A DNA stretch of 64,000 nt from an uncultured Chloroflexia bacterium (lineage in GTDB: Bacteria; Chloroflexota; Limnocylindria; Limnocylindrales; CSP1-4), in contig OY969796.1 of the NCBI GenBank assembly GCA_963703155.1, positions 3,509,875 through 3,573,874 of the forward strand. Direction: 5' to 3'. The position numbers were made by a program, and so were the translations under genes. This document shows, one piece after another, positions 2,883-9,241 of this stretch. Within the stretch, counting starts at the first letter, position 1. Each line of letters opens with the position of its first letter. The notes under the pieces are model-generated. The model was not told where the DNA came from. It made no database searches and saw only the letters and a program-made list of their open reading frames with translations.

Positions 2883-2898
2883 TAGAACAGATGTTCTG
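2883..2898. promoter_or_regulatory. LexA (SOS, Cheo-type) box TAGAACAGATGTTCTG in the divergent dnaE2 / gyrI-like intergenic region
   Basis: GAAC-N4-GTTC palindrome. An identical half-site architecture recurs at 9226-9241 upstream of imuA'-imuB. Confidence 0.65.
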
Positions 2899-2999
2899 TT
2901 TCAGCAAATGCCAAAGGCCTCTGGCAGGCGCCACGCGAGCCCTCGAGGATCACGCGAGCGGCGGTCGCCACGGGGTGCGACAGCCCGAGGAGGCGTGCG

Positions 3000-3482
3000 A
3001 TGGAGCACGAGATCCATGTCACGGACCGGCCCGCGCTGCGAGTCGTCTCGAAGCGCGTGTCAGTCGCAATCGAGCTCATCGGGCCGACGCTGGGCCAGGC
3101 GTTCGGCGAGGTGTATGCGCTCATCGGCGCCGCCGAGGCAGAGGCGGCCGGTCCGCCGTTCGTCATCTACCACGCAATGCCGGCGCCGGGTCAGCCGATG
3201 AACATCGAGATCTGCGCGCCGGTCAGCGGCTCGCTTGAGCCGCACGACCCGTGGCGCCTCGTGGACCTGCCGGCGGGCACGTTCGCGACCCTGAAGCACG
3301 TCGGTCCGTACGACACCGTCGAGGCGACCTACAGCGCTCTGACCGCCTGGATCCCGGACCACGGGCTCGCCATCGCGGGGCCGCCGCGCGAGGTGTACCT
3401 GAGCGAGCCGTCCACGCCGCCCGAGCTCATCGAGACCATCGTCGAGTTCCCGGTGATGAGGCTGCCGGTCGCGGTGGGCTGA
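3000..3482 (+). CDS. GyrI-like (SbmC / AraC effector-binding fold) small-molecule-binding protein
   Basis: 160 aa, ...PPFVIYHAMPAPGQPMNIEICAPVSG... is typical of the GyrI-like domain. Divergent from dnaE2 across the LexA box. Confidence 0.7.
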   Translation: MEHEIHVTDRPALRVVSKRVSVAIELIGPTLGQAFGEVYALIGAAEAEAAGPPFVIYHAMPAPGQPMNIEICAPVSGSLEPHDPWRLVDLPAGTFATLKHVGPYDTVEATYSALTAWIPDHGLAIAGPPREVYLSEPSTPPELIETIVEFPVMRLPVAVG

Positions 3483-3506
3483 AGGCGCGGTGGGCTGAAG
3501 GCGCGG

Positions 3507-4223
3507 TCAGGTCTGGCGGACCTTGATCCCGAGCTGGGCCGCCAGGAGGGGTGCGAGGCCGATCAGCTGCTCAGGCGTCACCGTGGCGCCGCGCAGGCCC
3601 TCAACGCCGCGGACCGAGCCGATCGAGGCACCGGTGAGGTCCGTGCGGAGAAGCCGCGCCCCGGTCACGTCGAGCAGCTCGATCTCGCAGCCCTCGAAGG
3701 AGAGGTCGCGGGCCTCGACGGTGCCCAGGTCCAGCTCGCCCATCACGCATCCGTCGAACGCGACGCCGGTGAGCTTGGCGCCGGAGAGGTCCACGAGGTC
3801 GAGACGTCCGCCGCGGACACGCACCGACGTCCACGAGCCGCCGGTCGAGAGCAGCGCTCCCACGCGCCGGACGGTGACCAGCGTGTCGCGCCAGACCGAG
3901 TCGGCGGCGTCGAGGCTGGCGGCGCCCAGCTCGTCGAGTCGGCACTCGGAGATCCGCGCCCGCCGCATCGACACTCCGTCCAGCGCGCACCGCTCGATGT
4001 GGCAGCCGAGGAACGCGGCGTCGTCGGCGGCCTGACCCGCGAAGTCGAGGCCGGCGAAGTGCACTGCGTCGTAGTCGCCGTTCGCCTCCAGGCCCAGCCC
4101 CGTGAAGGTGGTGATCGTGTCGGGCAGGGCCACGTCGCGCGGCGGCTCCTGCCTGGCCGTCGGCTTCGCCCTCGACGTGGTGGTCAGCGATCCGCCGCGC
4201 TTCGCGCCCTCCGCCGGACCCAC
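3507..4223 (-). CDS. Pentapeptide-repeat protein (MfpA/Qnr-like DNA-mimic family)
   Basis: A(D/N)LxG-type pentapeptide repeats run through the ORF (…LDFAGQAADDAAFLGCHIERCALDGVSMRRARISECRLDELG…). GTG start 1 nt after the stop of the upstream HAD gene. Confidence 0.8.
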   Translation of the reverse strand: MGPAEGAKRGGSLTTTSRAKPTARQEPPRDVALPDTITTFTGLGLEANGDYDAVHFAGLDFAGQAADDAAFLGCHIERCALDGVSMRRARISECRLDELGAASLDAADSVWRDTLVTVRRVGALLSTGGSWTSVRVRGGRLDLVDLSGAKLTGVAFDGCVMGELDLGTVEARDLSFEGCEIELLDVTGARLLRTDLTGASIGSVRGVEGLRGATVTPEQLIGLAPLLAAQLGIKVRQT

Positions 4224-4224
4224 C

Positions 4225-4887
4225 TCAGGCCGCCTCGACCACGACGTCCTCGAGCGAATCGATGAGCAGATCCGCCCCCGCGCTGATCAGTGCGGGCCCC
4301 ACGCCTGGCCGGTCGGGCACGCCCACGACGAACAGGCCGGCCGCCCGCGCCGCCCGGACGCCCACGGGCGAGTCCTCGAACGCGATGGCGTGCTCGGGGT
4401 CAGTCGAGAGCAGCCGGCAGCCCTCGAGGAACACGGCCGGGTCGGGCTTCCCGGCCCCGAGGTCTGATCCGGACGCCACGATCTCGAACGCGTCGAGGAG
4501 CCCCACGCCGCGGAGCGCGAGCTCAACCAGCGGCGTTGTGGTGGATGTGGCGACGCCCAGCCGCACGCGCCCCACCAGCGACCGGACCAGCTCCGCCGCC
4601 CCGCGGTGGAGCGGCGCGCCGGCGAGGTACTTGGCGCGCATCAGGTCGAGCAGCTCCGCCTCGATCATTGCGGGGTCCATCCCGCCGAGCCGCTTCGAGT
4701 AGGCGCGGGCGGAGTCGGGGAGGGCACGGCCGTGGCTGGCCTCGCGGTCGGCTTCGGTCAGGTGGTCGCCATGGCGGGCGAGCAGCTCGGCTTCAGCCTC
4801 GATCCAGAGGGGCTCGGAATCGAGCAGGAGGCCGTCCATGTCGAACAGGACGGCGCGAAAGCGGCGGGGCAGGACGAGCGCGGTCAC
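4225..4887 (-). CDS. HAD-superfamily hydrolase, subfamily IA (beta-phosphoglucomutase-like)
   Basis: Motifs LFDMDGLLLDSE ... GKPDP ... FEDSPVG. Proposed GTG start at 4887 with a TACAAT -10-like hexamer 7 nt upstream (leaderless). The ORF remains open to 4995. Confidence 0.7.
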   Translation of the reverse strand: MTALVLPRRFRAVLFDMDGLLLDSEPLWIEAEAELLARHGDHLTEADREASHGRALPDSARAYSKRLGGMDPAMIEAELLDLMRAKYLAGAPLHRGAAELVRSLVGRVRLGVATSTTTPLVELALRGVGLLDAFEIVASGSDLGAGKPDPAVFLEGCRLLSTDPEHAIAFEDSPVGVRAARAAGLFVVGVPDRPGVGPALISAGADLLIDSLEDVVVEAA

Positions 4888-5000
4888 GTCCGGGGATTGT
4901 AGCGGTGGTCTCTTGGGCCTCCGACAGGCCCGAGCCAACGTGCTTGGGCCAACAGAGGCGCGAGCGCCACCAACCGCGCGCCTTGCGCGTCTCACGCGGC

Positions 5001-5132
5001 GTGGTCACCCAGTTCCAGCAAATCCTCGCCCGCCGACCTGTCCTGGACCTCGTGTTTCGGGTGGTGGCGATTGCGCTGCTCGCGCTGCTGATCCTCGTGG
5101 TTCTCCCCGCTCTGGCGACCTTGGCCGGCTGA
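5001..5132 (+). CDS. Possible third copy of a small hydrophobic single-TM peptide (43 aa, GTG start, no SD)
   Basis: ...ILARRPVLDLVFRVVAIALLALLILVVLPALATLAG*. Same R-R-x-x-D + ~20 hydrophobic architecture as the peptides at 5899 and 6221. The coding strand is uncertain. Confidence 0.3.
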   Translation: MVTQFQQILARRPVLDLVFRVVAIALLALLILVVLPALATLAG

Positions 5133-5301
5133 GCCGGCGACCATCTCCACGATGACTTCCTCGCGGCGGCGGCCGCAGGCGATGGCGGCCGCCGACCTGG
5201 CCCGACCGGCCGTGGGCCGGCGGACCGTGACTCGGACCCCCGTTGACCCGTCAGCGGGGGTCCCTCCTTGCACGGCGCGGTGCGAGGGCTACGATGCGGT
5301 C

Positions 5302-5877
5302 ATGCGATCCGTCTTGCGCCCCGTCGTGCGCCCCGTCGTGCGCCCCGCAATGGCGCTCGCCCTCGCCCTTGCCCTCGGGGCGTGCTCCGGGTCGCCGGCC
5401 GCTTCGCCGGCTGCCGGGGCAGCCCAAACGCCCGCCGCCTCGACCGGCGCTCGCACGACGGAGTCCGGTGCGGACTCGCCCGCGCCGGACGCGAGCGCTA
5501 CGGCCCCGCCTGCGCCCGTCACGACACCGGTCAGCACCACGCAGACGCCGTGGGGCCGGATCGTCGACGCCGTGCCGGCCGCCTTCCCGGTCTTCCCGGG
5601 CGCCACGGTGGCCGACGCGCCGCCGGACGGCGCGGTCAGCGGGGCGTGGGTGTCGAAGGCGTCCGTGTCCGAGGTCGCGACCTGGTATCACGACGCGCTC
5701 CTGGCGGCGAAGTTCGCCAAGGTGGATGTCGGCAGTGCGCTCGAGGACGGATCGCGAGTGATTGACGTCCAGGGCGACCTTCCCGAGTGCAAGGCGCAGG
5801 TGACGGTCAAGCCGCAGAAGGATTTCACGATGATCAGCGTTCTGGTCGGCGCCGGGTGCGCTGGCGCGAGCGGTTGA
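5302..5877 (+). CDS. Lipoprotein (signal peptide + lipobox LALGAC), Ala/Pro/Thr-rich linker
   Basis: MRSVLRPVVRPVVRPAMALALALALGACSG.... The N-terminal 12-bp tandem repeat (5316-5346) encodes VRPVVRPVVRP. Confidence 0.7.
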   Translation: MRSVLRPVVRPVVRPAMALALALALGACSGSPAASPAAGAAQTPAASTGARTTESGADSPAPDASATAPPAPVTTPVSTTQTPWGRIVDAVPAAFPVFPGATVADAPPDGAVSGAWVSKASVSEVATWYHDALLAAKFAKVDVGSALEDGSRVIDVQGDLPECKAQVTVKPQKDFTMISVLVGAGCAGASG

Positions 5878-5898
5878 CGAGCCAGGAGGACGAAGTCG

Positions 5899-5997
5899 AT
5901 GGAAGTCCGCTCGCGCGACGTCGTCGCGGCCGGGGCGCTCACGGTGGTGCTGGTCGTGCTCGTGGTGATCCTGGTCGTGAGCTCGATCGGGCGCTGA
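5899..5997 (+). CDS. Small hydrophobic single-TM peptide, 32 aa: MEVRSRDVVAAGALTVVLVVLVVILVVSSIGR
   Basis: Strong SD AGGAGGA 8 nt upstream of the ATG, which sits immediately after the lipoprotein stop. Very high GC3. Its stop lies inside the GC hairpin at 5993-6013. Confidence 0.5.
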   Translation: MEVRSRDVVAAGALTVVLVVLVVILVVSSIGR

Positions 5998-6013
5998 CGC
6001 TCGACGCGTCAGC
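5993..6013 (+). terminator. GC-rich hairpin (8-bp stem GCTGACGC / GCGTCAGC, 5-nt loop) overlapping the stop of the 5899 peptide ORF; no U-tract
   Basis: Perfect inverted repeat read directly from the sequence. Confidence 0.4.
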
Positions 6014-6220
6014 CCCGCGAGCGATCTGGCGGGCTGTGGGGCGGCTGGAAGGCCGGGCCGGCGAGCGCCGGAAGACGTTCCGGCGATCAGGTCGCTCGGG
6101 GCGGCGAGCGACGGCCGCGGTGATTTGTCATGGCGCCGTTGCGATCTGACGCAACACGATCGCCCCAATCGGCGTCTGAGGTGCCGGCGACCGGCTGGAG
6201 CCGGTCCGGGGAGCGATGGG

Positions 6221-6337
6221 GTGGTGCCGGTGCAGACACGTCGACAGCGAGACCTGGGTGCGCTCGCACTCGTCCTCGCCGTCCTGCTCGTGCTGCTCGT
6301 CACCTCGATTGCGCTCGGGTCGCCCGCGATTCGCTGA
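6221..6337 (+). CDS. Small hydrophobic single-TM peptide, paralog of the 5899 ORF (~38 aa, GTG start): VPVQTRRQRDLGALALVLAVLLVLLVTSIALGSPAIR
   Basis: GGGGAG SD 8 nt upstream of the GTG at 6221. Shares the RxRD + poly-L/V/A + SI(G/A) architecture with the 5899 peptide. Confidence 0.45.
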   Translation: MVPVQTRRQRDLGALALVLAVLLVLLVTSIALGSPAIR

Positions 6338-6497
6338 CGGCCCCAACTGGCGTCCCGGATCGCACGCGCGACCCGGTCGACGACCGGCGTACCCCCTTTC
6401 GACCCTCGGCCCTCCGGACCGGTCGCCGCCATTCCTCCCGCGGACGCGCCGCGATGCCGACGCCGATGCGCCGTGGGGCAAAGGCCCAGCGAGAGGC

Positions 6498-6746
6498 TCA
6501 GTCGTACAGGCGCTCCAGGTGCCACGTCCCGGCGAGGCGGTCCAGGTACACCAGCGCGAGCCAGCTGCGGCCGACCACCTTGAAGTAGTCGCGGGCGATG
6601 GGCTCGCGCCACCACGCCTCCTCCACGCGCCAGCGGTTGCAGACCTCCACCGGCTCACGGCGCCCGTTCCAGGTGATCGCGACGAGATGGCCGGCGTCAT
6701 CGAGCTCGGCGTCCACGGCCGGGTGCTCGCGCAGGAGGCGGGTCAT
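6498..6746 (-). CDS. Small Trp-rich hypothetical protein (82 aa) translationally coupled to imuB
   Basis: MTRLLREHPAVDAELDDAGHLVAITWNGRREPVEVCNRWRVEEAWWREPIARDYFKVVGRSWLALVYLDRLAGTWHLERLYD. Its ATG overlaps the imuB stop in an ATGA arrangement. Confidence 0.55.
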   Translation of the reverse strand: MTRLLREHPAVDAELDDAGHLVAITWNGRREPVEVCNRWRVEEAWWREPIARDYFKVVGRSWLALVYLDRLAGTWHLERLYD

Positions 6747-8113
6747 CGGGCGAACCGTGCCTTGCGGGTATCGGCCGGCGCCATCGGAACGGCAGGGCGC
6801 GCGTCGGCCGGCGCCACTAGGCCAGCCCGAGCCTCGCCGGTCACCTCGACCCCCGCCACCGGCCGCCACGCCCAGCGCTCCTCGGCAAGCAGCGCCTCGG
6901 GATCGCCCACCTCCACGCGTCGCACCCGATCAGCCCCGAACGCGATCGCGAGCCTGGCCAGCTGCCACTCCAGCCGCGCTCCCCGAGCGGCCTGCGGCGT
7001 GAACAGCGGCAGTTGCTGGCCGCGGGCCGCATCGACCAGCCCGAGCTCGAGCTCGAGGCGCGCCACGGCAGCCGGCGGCGGTGACCCCTCGAGACGGGCG
7101 AACAGCAGCCGCTCGATCGCCTCGGCATCCGCGGTGGGCTCGGGAAAGCGCTGCTCGAAGCGGAGCTCGGACGGCGTCCCGCGCCGCGCGAACGCCAGAT
7201 CGTGGCTGATCGCAAGGCGCGCCAGCCCCGCCGCCTGGCCCCGCGCCGCCAGCTGGTCCGCGAGCGTGGCCGACAAGCGCCGGAGGACGAACCGCAGCGC
7301 GTCGAGCCCCTCGGCGGGCGGGTCCAGCGGCAGCGCCAGGGCCATCCGCTCGGCCGCATGGCGCGGGCGGAACCGCTCCGTCTCCTCGCCGCGCGCTCGG
7401 GCGTGGAGCCGCGCCCCCTCGTCGCCGAATCGTGCGACCAGCGCCGATCGCGGCAGCTCGGCCACCGAACCGATGGTCCGCAGCCCGAACCGCGCTAGGC
7501 GCGCCCGGATGTCCGGGTCCTTGGTCAGCAGCTTCGCCGGATAGGGGGCGAGGAACTGCTCGTCGTCGCCCGGCGGGACCAGCATCGGCGGGCCGCCCGG
7601 CTCCGCATACGCGGCGGCGACCCCGGCCGCGAACCCCGTCCCGGCGATCCCCGCATAGGACGGGCCGGGCAGCACCGGCGCCAGCGCCTCGACCATGCGC
7701 GCCACCAGCCGCTCCTCGACGCCCCACAGGCGCACCAGCCCATCGGCGTGGACGATCAGCCGGCCGAACGCCGGGTCCGACACGTCACTCGGCCCGGCGA
7801 TCCCGGGGCTGAACGTGGCGAGCCGCTCACAGGCGGCCTCGACCGCAGCCCGATCCTCGTCAGGCGCCGGGTCCAGGAAGACCGCCTCGGGCGCCATGCG
7901 GTGCGCCGACCCCAACGGGATCCCCCGCCGGACGCCGAGCGCCCGGGCGAGCGGATCTGCGTCGAGGACTGTCCCGTCCGTCCAGGGCTGCCCGCCAAGG
8001 ACGATCGGGCCGGTTGGCCACGAGCCGGAGATGGCGCCGCCCGCCTCGTGGCGAGCCCGGGCGAGGCGGAGTGGCAGGTGCGGCCAGAACAGGTAGAGCA
8101 GACGCATGGGCAT
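6743..8113 (-). CDS. imuB: ImuB, catalytically inactive Y-family polymerase-like mutasome subunit
   Basis: Starts MPMRLLYLFWPHLPLRLA.... The layout is Y-family/UmuC-like but lacks the catalytic acidic triad. Immediately downstream of imuA'. Confidence 0.8.
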   Translation of the reverse strand: MPMRLLYLFWPHLPLRLARARHEAGGAISGSWPTGPIVLGGQPWTDGTVLDADPLARALGVRRGIPLGSAHRMAPEAVFLDPAPDEDRAAVEAACERLATFSPGIAGPSDVSDPAFGRLIVHADGLVRLWGVEERLVARMVEALAPVLPGPSYAGIAGTGFAAGVAAAYAEPGGPPMLVPPGDDEQFLAPYPAKLLTKDPDIRARLARFGLRTIGSVAELPRSALVARFGDEGARLHARARGEETERFRPRHAAERMALALPLDPPAEGLDALRFVLRRLSATLADQLAARGQAAGLARLAISHDLAFARRGTPSELRFEQRFPEPTADAEAIERLLFARLEGSPPPAAVARLELELGLVDAARGQQLPLFTPQAARGARLEWQLARLAIAFGADRVRRVEVGDPEALLAEERWAWRPVAGVEVTGEARAGLVAPADARPAVPMAPADTRKARFAR

Positions 8114-8996
8114 CGATCGATGGGTGGGGGCCTTTCCGATCAGTAAGGGCGACGGGGCCGGGCGGGGCGGGCGGCTGGTGGGCGGGTGTCGCCGCAGACC
8201 CGGGCGGGGCCGACAGGGCGACGGGGCCGGGCGGGGAGGCAGGGCCCTCGAGCCCGGCGAGCAGCTCTGGGCGCCCGAGGCAGCCGTCCCGCGGGCCGCC
8301 CTCGGCGTAGAGGATGGCCAGCTCGGCGTCACGACCGGGCGGGCCATACCGGTTGCGCGCGACGGTGGCCCGGCACCGCTGCCCGACCACGTCCCGGCCC
8401 AGCCGGATCCAGCCTGAGCGGCGCAACTCGAGCCGCAGCCCGCTCGCCTCGTCCACCGCGGCCGCCAGCCCGCGACCCAACCCGTCGGGCGCCAGCACCA
8501 CGAGCAGCGTCCCCGCCCGCCGCGCCAGCGCCGCCAGCCGACCGAGCCGATCCCCCACCCGCGCCCCGGCGACCGCGGGGTCCCGGCCCTCGGGCAGGTC
8601 CAGCACCAGGAGGTCCACCGTGCGGGCGGCGAGCAGCGAGCCCGCCAGCCCCAGCGCCTCCTCGAGGTCCTGCGGTACGAGCACCACCAGCCACTCCGGG
8701 CGGACGCCGCGCGCCACCGCCTCCACGGGGTCGAACGCACGGGCGAGGTCAAGCCAGGCCACGATGGACCCGGCGGCCTGGGCCTCCGCCGCCACCCGCA
8801 GGGCGAGCGTGGTGCGTCCTGAGCTGGCACCTCCGCGGAGCGCCACGGTGGCCGAGCGCGGCAGCCCGCCCGTTCCCAGCACGGCGTCCAGCGCGGCGAA
8901 GCCCGTGGGGACCACCCGGCCGTCCTCGTGCGCGGCCACGCCCGGGCGTCCGGGCGCGAACGGGTTGCTGGGCGCTGGCGCCGGGGCGACAGGCAC
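7860..8996 (-). CDS. imuA: ImuA' (RecA/SulA-fold SOS mutasome subunit). The C-terminal ~110 codons are Pro/Ala-rich low complexity and overlap imuB
   Basis: ...VVPTGFAALDAVLGTGGLPRSATVALRGGASSGRTTLALRVAAEAQAAGSIVAWLDLARAFDP... resembles ImuA/SulA-like RecA-fold proteins. The first in-frame stop is at 7860. Confidence 0.7.
   Translation of the reverse strand: MPVAPAPAPSNPFAPGRPGVAAHEDGRVVPTGFAALDAVLGTGGLPRSATVALRGGASSGRTTLALRVAAEAQAAGSIVAWLDLARAFDPVEAVARGVRPEWLVVLVPQDLEEALGLAGSLLAARTVDLLVLDLPEGRDPAVAGARVGDRLGRLAALARRAGTLLVVLAPDGLGRGLAAAVDEASGLRLELRRSGWIRLGRDVVGQRCRATVARNRYGPPGRDAELAILYAEGGPRDGCLGRPELLAGLEGPASPPGPVALSAPPGSAATPAHQPPAPPGPVALTDRKGPHPSIDAHASALPVLAAPATPPRPGSPRGGRRHLRLVANRPDRPWRAALDGRDSPRRRSARPGARRPAGDPVGVGAPHGARGGLPGPGA
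8146..8235. repeat. 22-bp direct repeat AGGGCGACGGGGCCGGGCGGGG (8146-8167 and 8214-8235) inside the imuA' tail / imuB start region; encodes PPGPVAL twice
   Basis: Exact repeat seen in the sequence. Confidence 0.6.
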
Positions 8997-9225
8997 GAAG
9001 GCGGGAGAGGCGGAGGCGCGCGGGAGCCCAGCGTGACGGCCCCGCCCTCGGCTGCCATGGCTTCGGCCAGCTCGTCATCGATCGGCAGGGGCGCCACTGC
9101 GAGCGCGCCATCGACCACCGGCGCGGTGTCTCCCCAGCGGCGTGGAGCGGCCGCGCCCCAGCGTGCCTGGAGGGTGGCGAGGGCCTGGGAGACATCGGAT
9201 GCTCGGGTCATCGGACGTCTAATCA

Positions 9226-9241
9226 TAGAACGCATGTTCTA
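9226..9241. promoter_or_regulatory. LexA (SOS) box TAGAACGCATGTTCTA upstream of imuA'-imuB
   Basis: Same half-sites as the dnaE2 box (TAGAAC-N4-GTTCT). Overlaps the ATG of an alternative upstream ORF that starts at 9235. Confidence 0.65.

Follow-up and report, generated by a model that had tools for sequence, protein, structure and literature searches.

Three small single-helix membrane proteins, a lipoprotein and a structured RNA encoded between mutasome genes in Limnocylindrales

The sequence studied here (the window) is a 64,000-nucleotide (nt) stretch from the genome of an uncultured Chloroflexia bacterium of the order Limnocylindrales (assembly GCA_963703155.1, contig OY969796.1, positions 3,509,875 to 3,573,874 of the forward strand). 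It contains three small open reading frames (ORFs) for hydrophobic peptides, which we term orf3 (5001-5132), orf1 (5899-5997) and orf2 (6221/6230-6337), a lipoprotein gene between orf3 and orf1, and a region behind orf3 that potentially folds into a structured RNA (Table 1). A preliminary description, made from the sequence alone, had located the ORFs and the strong ribosome-binding site of orf1 correctly, and compared the peptides to type I toxins or regulators of membrane complexes. The comparative analysis reported here indicates that orf1, orf2 and orf3 almost certainly encode real small membrane proteins.

The GC content of the window is 72%, and 59 ORFs of at least 25 amino acids (aa) occur within a 6-kb stretch around the module. 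Since DNA of this composition is full of ORFs, a single ORF is weak evidence, and gene status was therefore decided by comparison with relatives. The related loci were collected using a conserved 82-aa gene (6498-6746, minus strand) that is convergent on orf2 as a bait, and their ascertainment rests on that linkage. The set comprises 80 loci from species-representative genomes, all of them Chloroflexota or Limnocylindrales metagenome-assembled genomes. The preliminary description had proposed tblastn to decide whether the ORFs or only the DNA are conserved; it is the ORFs themselves that are found in relatives, at the syntenic position and on the expected strand. Profile hidden Markov models (HMMs) of the three families match 43 to 61 of the 80 loci (Table 1) and detect one copy of each family in the window. 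The gene order is always orf3, lipoprotein gene, orf1, orf2, on one strand; all four genes are present in 25 loci, and 18 loci lack orf1 only and have the other three genes in the same order. Some loci contain two orf1 or two orf2 HMM matches (L032/L056/L064 and L053), suggesting local duplication.

The composition and substitution pattern of the three ORFs are those of coding sequences. The GC content at the first, second and third codon positions is coding-like in orf1 (0.76/0.39/0.94), orf2 (0.82/0.46/0.77) and orf3 (0.80/0.36/0.82). The per-codon entropy at the same positions is 0.95/0.44/1.20 bits in orf2 and 0.94/0.66/1.17 bits in orf1, and the wobble base of invariant Gly, Pro and Arg codons in the orf1 and orf2 alignments varies by 1.2-1.9 bits. 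Free wobble bases combined with fixed residues argue for selection at the protein level and against an overlapping nucleotide constraint inside the ORFs. The crude ratio of non-synonymous to synonymous substitutions (dN/dS) is 0.41 for orf2, 0.60 for orf1 and 0.79 for orf3, with 0.65 for the folded domain of the lipoprotein and 0.16 for the 82-aa protein; these values are compressed, because synonymous sites are saturated (proportion of synonymous differences, pS, about 0.5) and GC at third codon positions is constrained, and hence were read only relative to the neighbouring genes. The corresponding ratio of observed differences, pN/pS, is lowest in the annotated frame among all six frames. 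Identity to relatives is 60-86% for orf2 versus 36-52% for the lipoprotein. Comparison of the relatives thus shows purifying selection at the protein level acting on all three ORFs. The best 19-aa Kyte-Doolittle windows of the encoded proteins score 3.0-3.25, and all three N-termini contain Arg.

The orf1 family has the consensus MEPRxRDxxGAGLLxLVLxxLVxLxVxAALPx. All 41 copies extracted from relatives start with ATG and are intact. A ribosome-binding site of the GGAG/GAGG type is located 6-11 nt before the ATG in 40 of 40 loci, and across these loci orf1 begins 13-30 nt after the stop codon of the lipoprotein gene. The preliminary description had also pointed to the GC hairpin over the orf1 stop codon. 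The hairpin is indeed present and perfect in the window; many relatives have some hairpin near the orf1 stop, conserved neither in sequence nor in position, and we dropped it as a family feature. In locus L056, orf1 is followed by a tandem repeat of about 15 nt.

A start codon (GTG, ATG or TTG) is present at the position corresponding to window 6230 in all 59 orf2 sequences, which is why the orf2 start was assigned to GTG 6230. Of these sequences 58 are intact, and the lone broken copy (L044) carries a frameshift. In close relatives, the region corresponding to 6216-6232 reads ATG-GGG-GTG-GTG-CCG-GTG (MGVVPV...) ahead of and at the conserved start. In the window the G-run is shorter by one G, so the upstream ATG is out of frame, and GTG 6221, 6224 and 6230 are left as possible starts. 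A GGGGGA-type ribosome-binding site is found about 8 nt upstream of the orf2 start in relatives. A profile search with orf2 against 1.84 billion cluster representatives matched 52 clusters (E up to 1e-3), almost all of them small proteins aligned over their C-terminal ~35 aa; the few long ones resemble low-complexity noise. The 17 clusters that were inspected all have the same build with a core of 34-36 aa.

Both orf1 and orf2 contain an RPRD-Gly motif beside the membrane helix. Comparison of the two profiles by hhalign gives a probability of 33% (E 4.5e-4), BLASTP aligns only the RPRD residues, and the orf1 HMM matches orf2 of the window at E 0.025. By this evidence the two are plausibly paralogues. 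The hhalign probability for orf1 and orf3 is 4%; judged by its profile, orf3 is a separate family, and we rejected it as a third member of the orf1/orf2 family. Of the look-alike family in the preliminary description, the orf1/orf2 pair is therefore retained on weak similarity, and the weaker third copy is not. Its picture of the products as small membrane peptides that have one helix, an R-x-R-D motif and an N-terminus rich in Arg agrees with the residues conserved in at least 90% of sequences, which are D7 and G10 in orf1 and Q2, R7, D8, L12 and G30 in orf2. The expectation that annotation misses such genes held in part. The source genome annotates orf1 as a hypothetical protein and calls orf3 with an upstream, over-long start (75 aa); orf2 seems to be uncalled there, and an identical 38-aa ORF is called by IMG on a 1.5-kb metagenome contig. 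Sources that name any of these proteins call them 'hypothetical protein', including those found with a 70-aa upstream-extended orf2 frame. Searches of Pfam, NCBIfam, PADLOC and PDB sequences gave no match for the peptides, and membership in a defence system was rejected for lack of a significant PADLOC match.

Upstream of orf3, the pattern A[AC]C-N16-18-CGTC is followed 8-12 nt later (mostly 8) by an in-frame GTG or ATG in 56 of 61 loci. This pattern resembles promoters of extracytoplasmic function (ECF) sigma factors, and the short distance between the -10 element and the start codon is the reason why we read the orf3 mRNA as leaderless. The orf3 proteins are 39-53 aa long among relatives, mostly 41-43 aa, with the consensus ..RRxALELLLRAxAIALxxLLILGLLPAIAEAA, in which the LLILxLLPA motif is conserved.

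The region downstream of orf3 contains a conserved element with four potential hairpins (H1-H4). In an alignment of about 30 loci, the stems are variable and the loops are conserved: CCUGGGGGC; UUGCGAUGGC; CUGGGCAG or CUGGUGAGCG; and CUGGGG. The G-rich loops are CUGGGG, CUGGGCAG and UUGCGAUGG. Almost all loci, when their sequences are folded singly, form these four hairpins. A covariance model trained on 16 sequences from a single subgroup matches over its full length in 51 loci, many of them divergent and absent from the training set, always on the orf3 strand (for example, L015:5389-5533 and L071:4266-4413, both on the minus strand of their loci); the window match scores 40.1 bits (E 5e-5). 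The model alignment has 95.3% paired cells and changes on both sides in 37 of its 39 pairs, values that none of 500 shuffles reaches, and controls with slid alignments reach at most 50% pairing; as the alignment is fitted to the model, these figures lean towards structure. A run of RNAalifold on a MAFFT alignment had already found compensatory changes in 15 of 23 pairs. Numerous U-G pairs point to the orf3 strand as the transcribed strand. Neither window positions 4000-8000 nor four canonical loci matched any Rfam 15 family at E up to 1.

The RNA closely follows the orf3 stop codon in 42 loci, usually at a distance of 1-10 nt. Four loci (L070, L071, L072, L075) have no ORF between the ECF-type promoter and the RNA, which adjoin each other, and in two of these (L071, L075) the RNA is not followed by a lipoprotein gene. 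The RNA is thus best regarded as a unit in its own right, and orf3 and the RNA together resemble a dual-function transcript. The GC hairpin H4, of 13-15 bp, was rejected as a classical intrinsic terminator, since its tail is not U-rich, and termination there is uncertain.

The lipoprotein gene also seems to be transcribed without a leader. A TA[CG]NNT hexamer (TACGAT or TAGGAT) precedes an in-frame lipoprotein start by 6-8 nt in 32 of 48 loci. The signal peptide (MRSVLRP...LALALALGAC-SG) ends in a lipobox whose Cys is retained among homologues. It is followed by a disordered Pro/Ala/Thr/Ser tether of about 55 residues and an alpha+beta domain of about 105 aa with two invariant Cys residues; in the structural model the predicted local distance difference test score (pLDDT) exceeds 90 over residues 80-185. 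The domain matches envelope lipoproteins and periplasmic proteins (DcrB, PA1624, Flpp3/DUF3568 and BamC). These matches have 7-16% identity and the fold is generic, so no function is transferable to the lipoprotein. Some relatives carry PF27226 in precomputed annotation, and our literature searches turned up nothing on PF27226 or on small proteins of Limnocylindria.

Table 1. Positions of the predicted genes and regulatory elements in the window
Feature	Position	Strand	Description
LexA box of dnaE2	2884-2897	minus-strand gene	perfect AGAAC-N4-GTTCT, 33 nt upstream of dnaE2
ECF-sigma-type promoter of orf3	4968-4991	+	-10 CGTC 4988-4991; -35 CAC/ACC instead of AAC
orf3	5001-5132	+	leaderless, 43-aa single-helix membrane protein; GTG start, fM-VTQFQQILARRPVLDLVFRVVAIALLALLILVVLPALATLAG; HMM matches 61/80
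Structured RNA 3' of orf3	5144-5269	+	H2 5165-5197, H3 5204-5226, H4 5234-5263; H1 lost in the window
-10-like TACGAT	5290-5295	+	6 nt before lipoprotein ATG 5302, leaderless geometry
Lipoprotein gene	5302-5877	+	191 aa; lipobox LGAC, disordered linker, C-terminal domain
orf1 ribosome-binding site AGGAGGA	5884-5890	+	8 nt before ATG
orf1	5899-5997	+	32-aa single-helix membrane protein; ATG start; MEVRSRDVVAAGALTVVLVVLVVILVVSSIGR; HMM matches 43/80
Hairpin over orf1 stop	5993-6013	+	perfect, 8-bp GC; stem GCTGACGC/GCGTCAGC; stop codon 5995-5997
Terminator-like site	6101-6118	+	GCGGC...GCCGC then GGTGATTTGT; the only one from a simple scan, weak
ECF-sigma-type promoter of orf2	6153-6176	+	AAC 6153-6155, 17-nt spacer, CGTC 6173-6176
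Hairpin at predicted orf2 mRNA 5' end	6189-6206	+	GACCGGCT-GG-AGCCGGTC
orf2	6230-6337	+	35-aa single-helix membrane protein (38 aa if GTG 6221 is used); consensus MQTARPRDLGALALVVGLFLVLLVVSIALGSPAVR; HMM matches 58/80
Conserved element downstream of orf2	6417-6430	+	GACCGGTCGCCGCC; between convergent orf2 and 82-aa genes; window and ~17 close loci
LexA box of imuA-imuB-82aa operon promoter	9227-9240	minus-strand operon	TTGACG-AGAACATGCGTTCT-ATGAT, perfect AGAAC-N4-GTTCT

Upstream of orf2, the window and 27 of the 58 related loci have the promoter pattern AAC-N17-CGTC; the remaining loci have -10 boxes of the TACACT/TATGAT type. For the hairpin with which the orf2 mRNA is predicted to begin, the helix was specified by hand. 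In the alignment 90% of its cells are paired and five of seven pairs are changed on both sides, and none of 500 shuffles equalled this. RNAalifold on a MAFFT alignment of the orf2 5' untranslated region (UTR) gave no structure, with the loops misaligned. The loop varies in length, which argues for an RNA hairpin rather than a protein operator. Positions 6419-6428 of the conserved element downstream of orf2 are perfectly complementary over 10 nt to positions 6185-6194 of the 5' UTR, and among the window and the ~17 close loci there is no informative covariation between the two. The GACCGGTCGCCGCC element adjoins the stop of the 82-aa gene in relatives. The stop codons of orf2 and of the convergent 82-aa gene are 1-25 nt apart in 8 loci.

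A position weight matrix (PWM) constructed from the orf2 and orf3 promoter sets was used to scan the window. It scored 25.1 at orf2 and 19.9 at orf3, with no other site above 14. Among 20 shuffled windows, two gave scores of 15.2 and 19.4, so by PWM score the orf2 site alone is clearly beyond chance. A simple scan for sigma-70 promoters and terminators found no promoters on either strand.

Taken together, these elements suggest three transcription units. Unit 1 would consist of an AAC-N17-CGTCT promoter of the ECF-sigma type, leaderless orf3 and the four-hairpin RNA of about 130 nt. Unit 2 would start at the TACGAT -10 element and comprise the lipoprotein gene, without a leader, and orf1 with its strong ribosome-binding site; the terminator-like site at 6101-6118, between orf1 and the orf2 promoter, could be the true end of this transcript. 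Unit 3 would include an ECF-type promoter, the covarying 5' hairpin and orf2.

The module has a conserved place within genes of the SOS mutasome. On its right, the minus strand carries the 82-aa gene together with an imuA-like gene (RecA fold) and an imuB-like gene (Y-family polymerase), and the LexA box of this operon sits between the -35 element TTGACG and the -10 element. On its left, dnaE2 starts at 2852 on the minus strand (N-terminus AELHCHTHFSFLDGAS) and has a LexA box of its own. In nearly all 80 loci, the module is nested between dnaE2 and imuA-imuB-82aa on the opposite strand. In most relatives, 13-70 nt separate the dnaE2 box from the orf3 promoter downstream of it, and the dnaE2 start is about 30 nt away from the box; in the subclade of the window, genes for a GyrI-like protein, a pentapeptide-repeat protein and a HAD hydrolase are inserted between this box and orf3. 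The sequence GAAC-N4-GTTC occurs in the window only at 2885, 9228 and 33215, and positions 2896 to 9228 are free of LexA boxes. We rejected the idea that LexA controls the small genes, as none of the orf3, lipoprotein and orf2 promoters has a box. Despite their place in the split mutasome cassette, the module promoters do not look LexA-controlled.

Several observations concern the neighbouring genes. The dnaE2 LexA box is also about 100 nt upstream of the GyrI-like gene (3000-3482, plus strand), which may be compared with the SOS-induced sbmC/gyrI of E. coli. The Trp-rich 82-aa protein encoded after imuB belongs to a 90%-identity cluster of 273 members and has 77-93% identity across the 80 genomes. 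It has no match in Pfam or NCBIfam and may be an uncharacterised mutasome component. The HAD hydrolase gene, whose likely start is GTG 4887, has a further promoter of the leaderless type: TACAAT (4893-4898, minus strand) precedes this start by 6 nt, and relatives that share this neighbour conserve it as ATTGTA[CG].

We consider it probable that the peptides, the lipoprotein and the RNA constitute a lineage-specific envelope module of Limnocylindrales, at least partly driven by an ECF sigma factor, in which orf1 and probably orf2 are partners or modulators acting as a helix in the membrane. The peptides would be inserted into the membrane after translation, since they are too short for co-translational targeting. 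Following the positive-inside rule, the RxRD end would be cytoplasmic, and only 4-8 residues would protrude on the outside. The orf1 product, and probably that of its likely paralogue orf2, could be embedded in the membrane as a partner or modulator, either of the lipoprotein expressed alongside it or of a membrane enzyme or sensor whose gene is unlinked, with the juxtamembrane RPRD-G motif and the C-terminal GSP/LP motif as potential contact points. The AAC-N17-CGTCT promoters would place orf3-RNA and orf2 under one ECF sigma factor; this shared control, itself predicted, is the reason to think of an envelope-stress regulon, and the module is possibly an envelope-stress one. In this reading, orf3 and the RNA would be made as one short transcript similar to dual-function small RNAs.

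A number of observations weigh against this interpretation. The peptides are linked to the lipoprotein by co-location only, and the generic fold matches of the latter point to no activity. The dN/dS ratio of orf3 is weak, and AAC-N17-CGTC is kept at only about half of the orf2 promoters. In the window itself the -35 element of the orf3 promoter is off consensus, and neither an ECF sigma factor gene nor a further copy of the promoter motif was found within the 64 kb. The tail of H4 contains 20% T against a background of 13.5%. The module is eroding in the subclade of the window: among its nearest relatives (L001, L004, L007 and L010), L007 lacks the lipoprotein gene and orf1, L004 lacks the lipoprotein gene, and L001 and L010 lack orf1 and the RNA. 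Finally, the boundaries of the transcription units, their dependence on sigma factors and translation of the ORFs are all deduced from sequence. As to the window copy, we also observed signs of decay, namely the loss of RNA hairpin H1, the off-consensus orf3 -35 element and a TAnnnT box upstream of orf2 that now reads TGAGGT.

Other explanations account for parts of these data. Chance reading frames in GC-rich intergenic DNA, with only DNA or RNA elements being conserved, would fit the abundance of ORFs in the 6-kb stretch and the ease with which GC-rich sequence yields frames rich in L and V; they would not produce coding-type substitutions, tightest at position 2 and free at position 3, conserved start and stop codons, ribosome-binding sites, the lowest pN/pS of six frames in the annotated one, or an orf2 more conserved than the neighbouring lipoprotein. 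The comparative data effectively refute this explanation, to which we assign a negligible probability. For orf3 only, the ORF might not make a functional protein of its own but be a translated leader (upstream ORF), or just the 5' portion of the RNA, that influences how the RNA and the downstream lipoprotein operon fold, persist or are read through. In most of the 42 loci where orf3 adjoins the RNA, 1-10 nt separate its stop codon from the RNA, which is consistent with such a role, as are the four lineages with the RNA directly behind the promoter, the weakest dN/dS of the three ORFs, and H4, which has no U-tail and would allow read-through into the lipoprotein gene. However, a mere leader would need neither the length of mostly 41-43 aa nor the helix and the LLILxLLPA...AAQAA motif, which 56-61 loci conserve; in 32 of 48 loci a separate -10 element and a leaderless start serve the lipoprotein gene, and the RNA occurs without a downstream gene in L071 and L075 and hence is not simply a leader. 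On balance, this role of orf3 is unlikely.

One of the peptides, most plausibly orf2 or orf3, might instead be a type I toxin that depolarises the membrane and whose mRNA is kept in check by RNA structure or an antisense RNA. Their sizes (32, 35 and 43 aa, below 60 aa) and hydropathy of 3.0-3.25 fit, the predicted orf2 mRNA opens with a conserved hairpin, and a structured RNA is attached to orf3. The complementarity of 6185-6194 and 6419-6428 across orf2 is reminiscent of toxin mRNAs of the hok/aapA1 type, in which 5' and 3' regions pair over a long range, and as orf2 is convergent with the LexA-controlled imuA-imuB-82aa operon, their transcripts could overlap as antisense. On the other hand, the genes are present in one copy per genome region with fixed synteny in 58-61 species-level genomes, rather than being patchy or multi-copy, and polar motifs are kept and wobble bases are free, so no antisense pairing constraint is visible within the ORFs. 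The opposite strand has no conserved structure except for the palindromic H4, no promoter-like site in the simple scan and no Rfam match; the orf2 3' element does not covary with the 5' UTR; and orf1 follows closely behind the lipoprotein gene with a strong and exposed ribosome-binding site. The toxin proposal of the preliminary description has thus gained no positive evidence and is quite unlikely, and regulators of membrane complexes, also suggested there, or subunits of such complexes would be the better general class for the peptides. The location of the module raises another possibility, that the peptides are DNA-damage-linked checkpoint factors of division or the envelope recruited into the mutasome cluster. 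In Caulobacter, SidA is a 29-aa SOS-induced protein that binds FtsW, and SidA and DidA are small single-helix inhibitors of division induced by DNA damage (PMC4211646); the peptides studied here are likewise tiny and single-helix. In addition, both flanking groups, dnaE2 and imuA-imuB-82aa, have a perfect LexA box in nearly all 80 loci, and in relatives the dnaE2 box is close to the orf3 promoter. Nonetheless, no LexA box covers the promoters of the module, which are of the ECF type and not of the SOS type, three unrelated genes separate the dnaE2 box from orf3 in the window clade, and the linkage may be mere inherited gene order; we regard a SidA-like role as very unlikely. A long shot is a checkpoint device wired into the SOS mutasome, in which the ECF-driven orf3-RNA and the two RPRD mini-proteins would adjust envelope growth or division while the error-prone polymerases are active, LexA-controlled transcription of imuA-imuB-82aa would silence orf2 by antisense overlap, and the complementary 5' and 3' elements would gate orf2 translation.

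An envelope module of this kind would be of interest for several reasons. Annotation covers small membrane proteins poorly, and hardly anything has been learned about those of uncultured Chloroflexota. The analysis yields three motif-bearing protein families labelled 'hypothetical' and a well-supported structured RNA that is absent from Rfam. The promoter motif is testable and could define an envelope-stress regulon in Limnocylindrales, which are known here from metagenome-assembled genomes alone. The constant placement in the split imuA-imuB / dnaE2 cassette offers a defined site at which to study a possible coupling of envelope control with SOS mutagenesis.

Among known systems, the peptides may be compared with small single-pass accessory or regulatory membrane proteins such as MgrB, AcrZ, KdpF, CydX and Prli42. 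Both are 30-45 aa long and have a single helix, a cytoplasmic end that is short and charged, and conserved residues at the membrane boundary, and their genes lie near, or are co-expressed with, that of a larger envelope protein. In contrast to these, the families described here show no sequence relationship to them, and three such genes occur in one module. The type I toxins TisB, Hok, Fst and AapA1 are similar in size and hydrophobicity, and the structured 5' end of the orf2 mRNA and its possible 5'-3' complementarity are also shared; unlike those of the toxins, the genes described here are vertically inherited and single-copy, their polar motifs are conserved, and no antisense RNA is evident. 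SidA and DidA resemble the peptides as tiny single-helix proteins, and the genes described here are located among SOS genes, whereas their promoters are of the ECF type and lack a LexA box. The putative orf3-RNA transcript has parallels in the dual-function small RNAs SgrS/SgrT, RNAIII/delta-haemolysin and AzuCR/AzuC and in the sigma-E-dependent small RNAs MicA, RybB and MicL. As in those systems, a small membrane-directed ORF, a conserved structured RNA and an ECF-type promoter are found together, with some lineages here having the RNA only; the differences are that this RNA has no Rfam match, its transcript ends are predicted and H4 has no U-tract. The promoters are similar to the mapped sigma-E (ECF) target promoters of S. 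coelicolor, for example GGCAACC-N16-CGTCTT, about half of whose targets encode cell-envelope proteins, lipoproteins included (PMC6767563). The -35 AAC, the 17-nt spacer, the -10 CGTCT and the richness of targets in lipoproteins and membrane proteins are shared with the module; S. coelicolor belongs to another phylum, and the likeness is to a consensus only.

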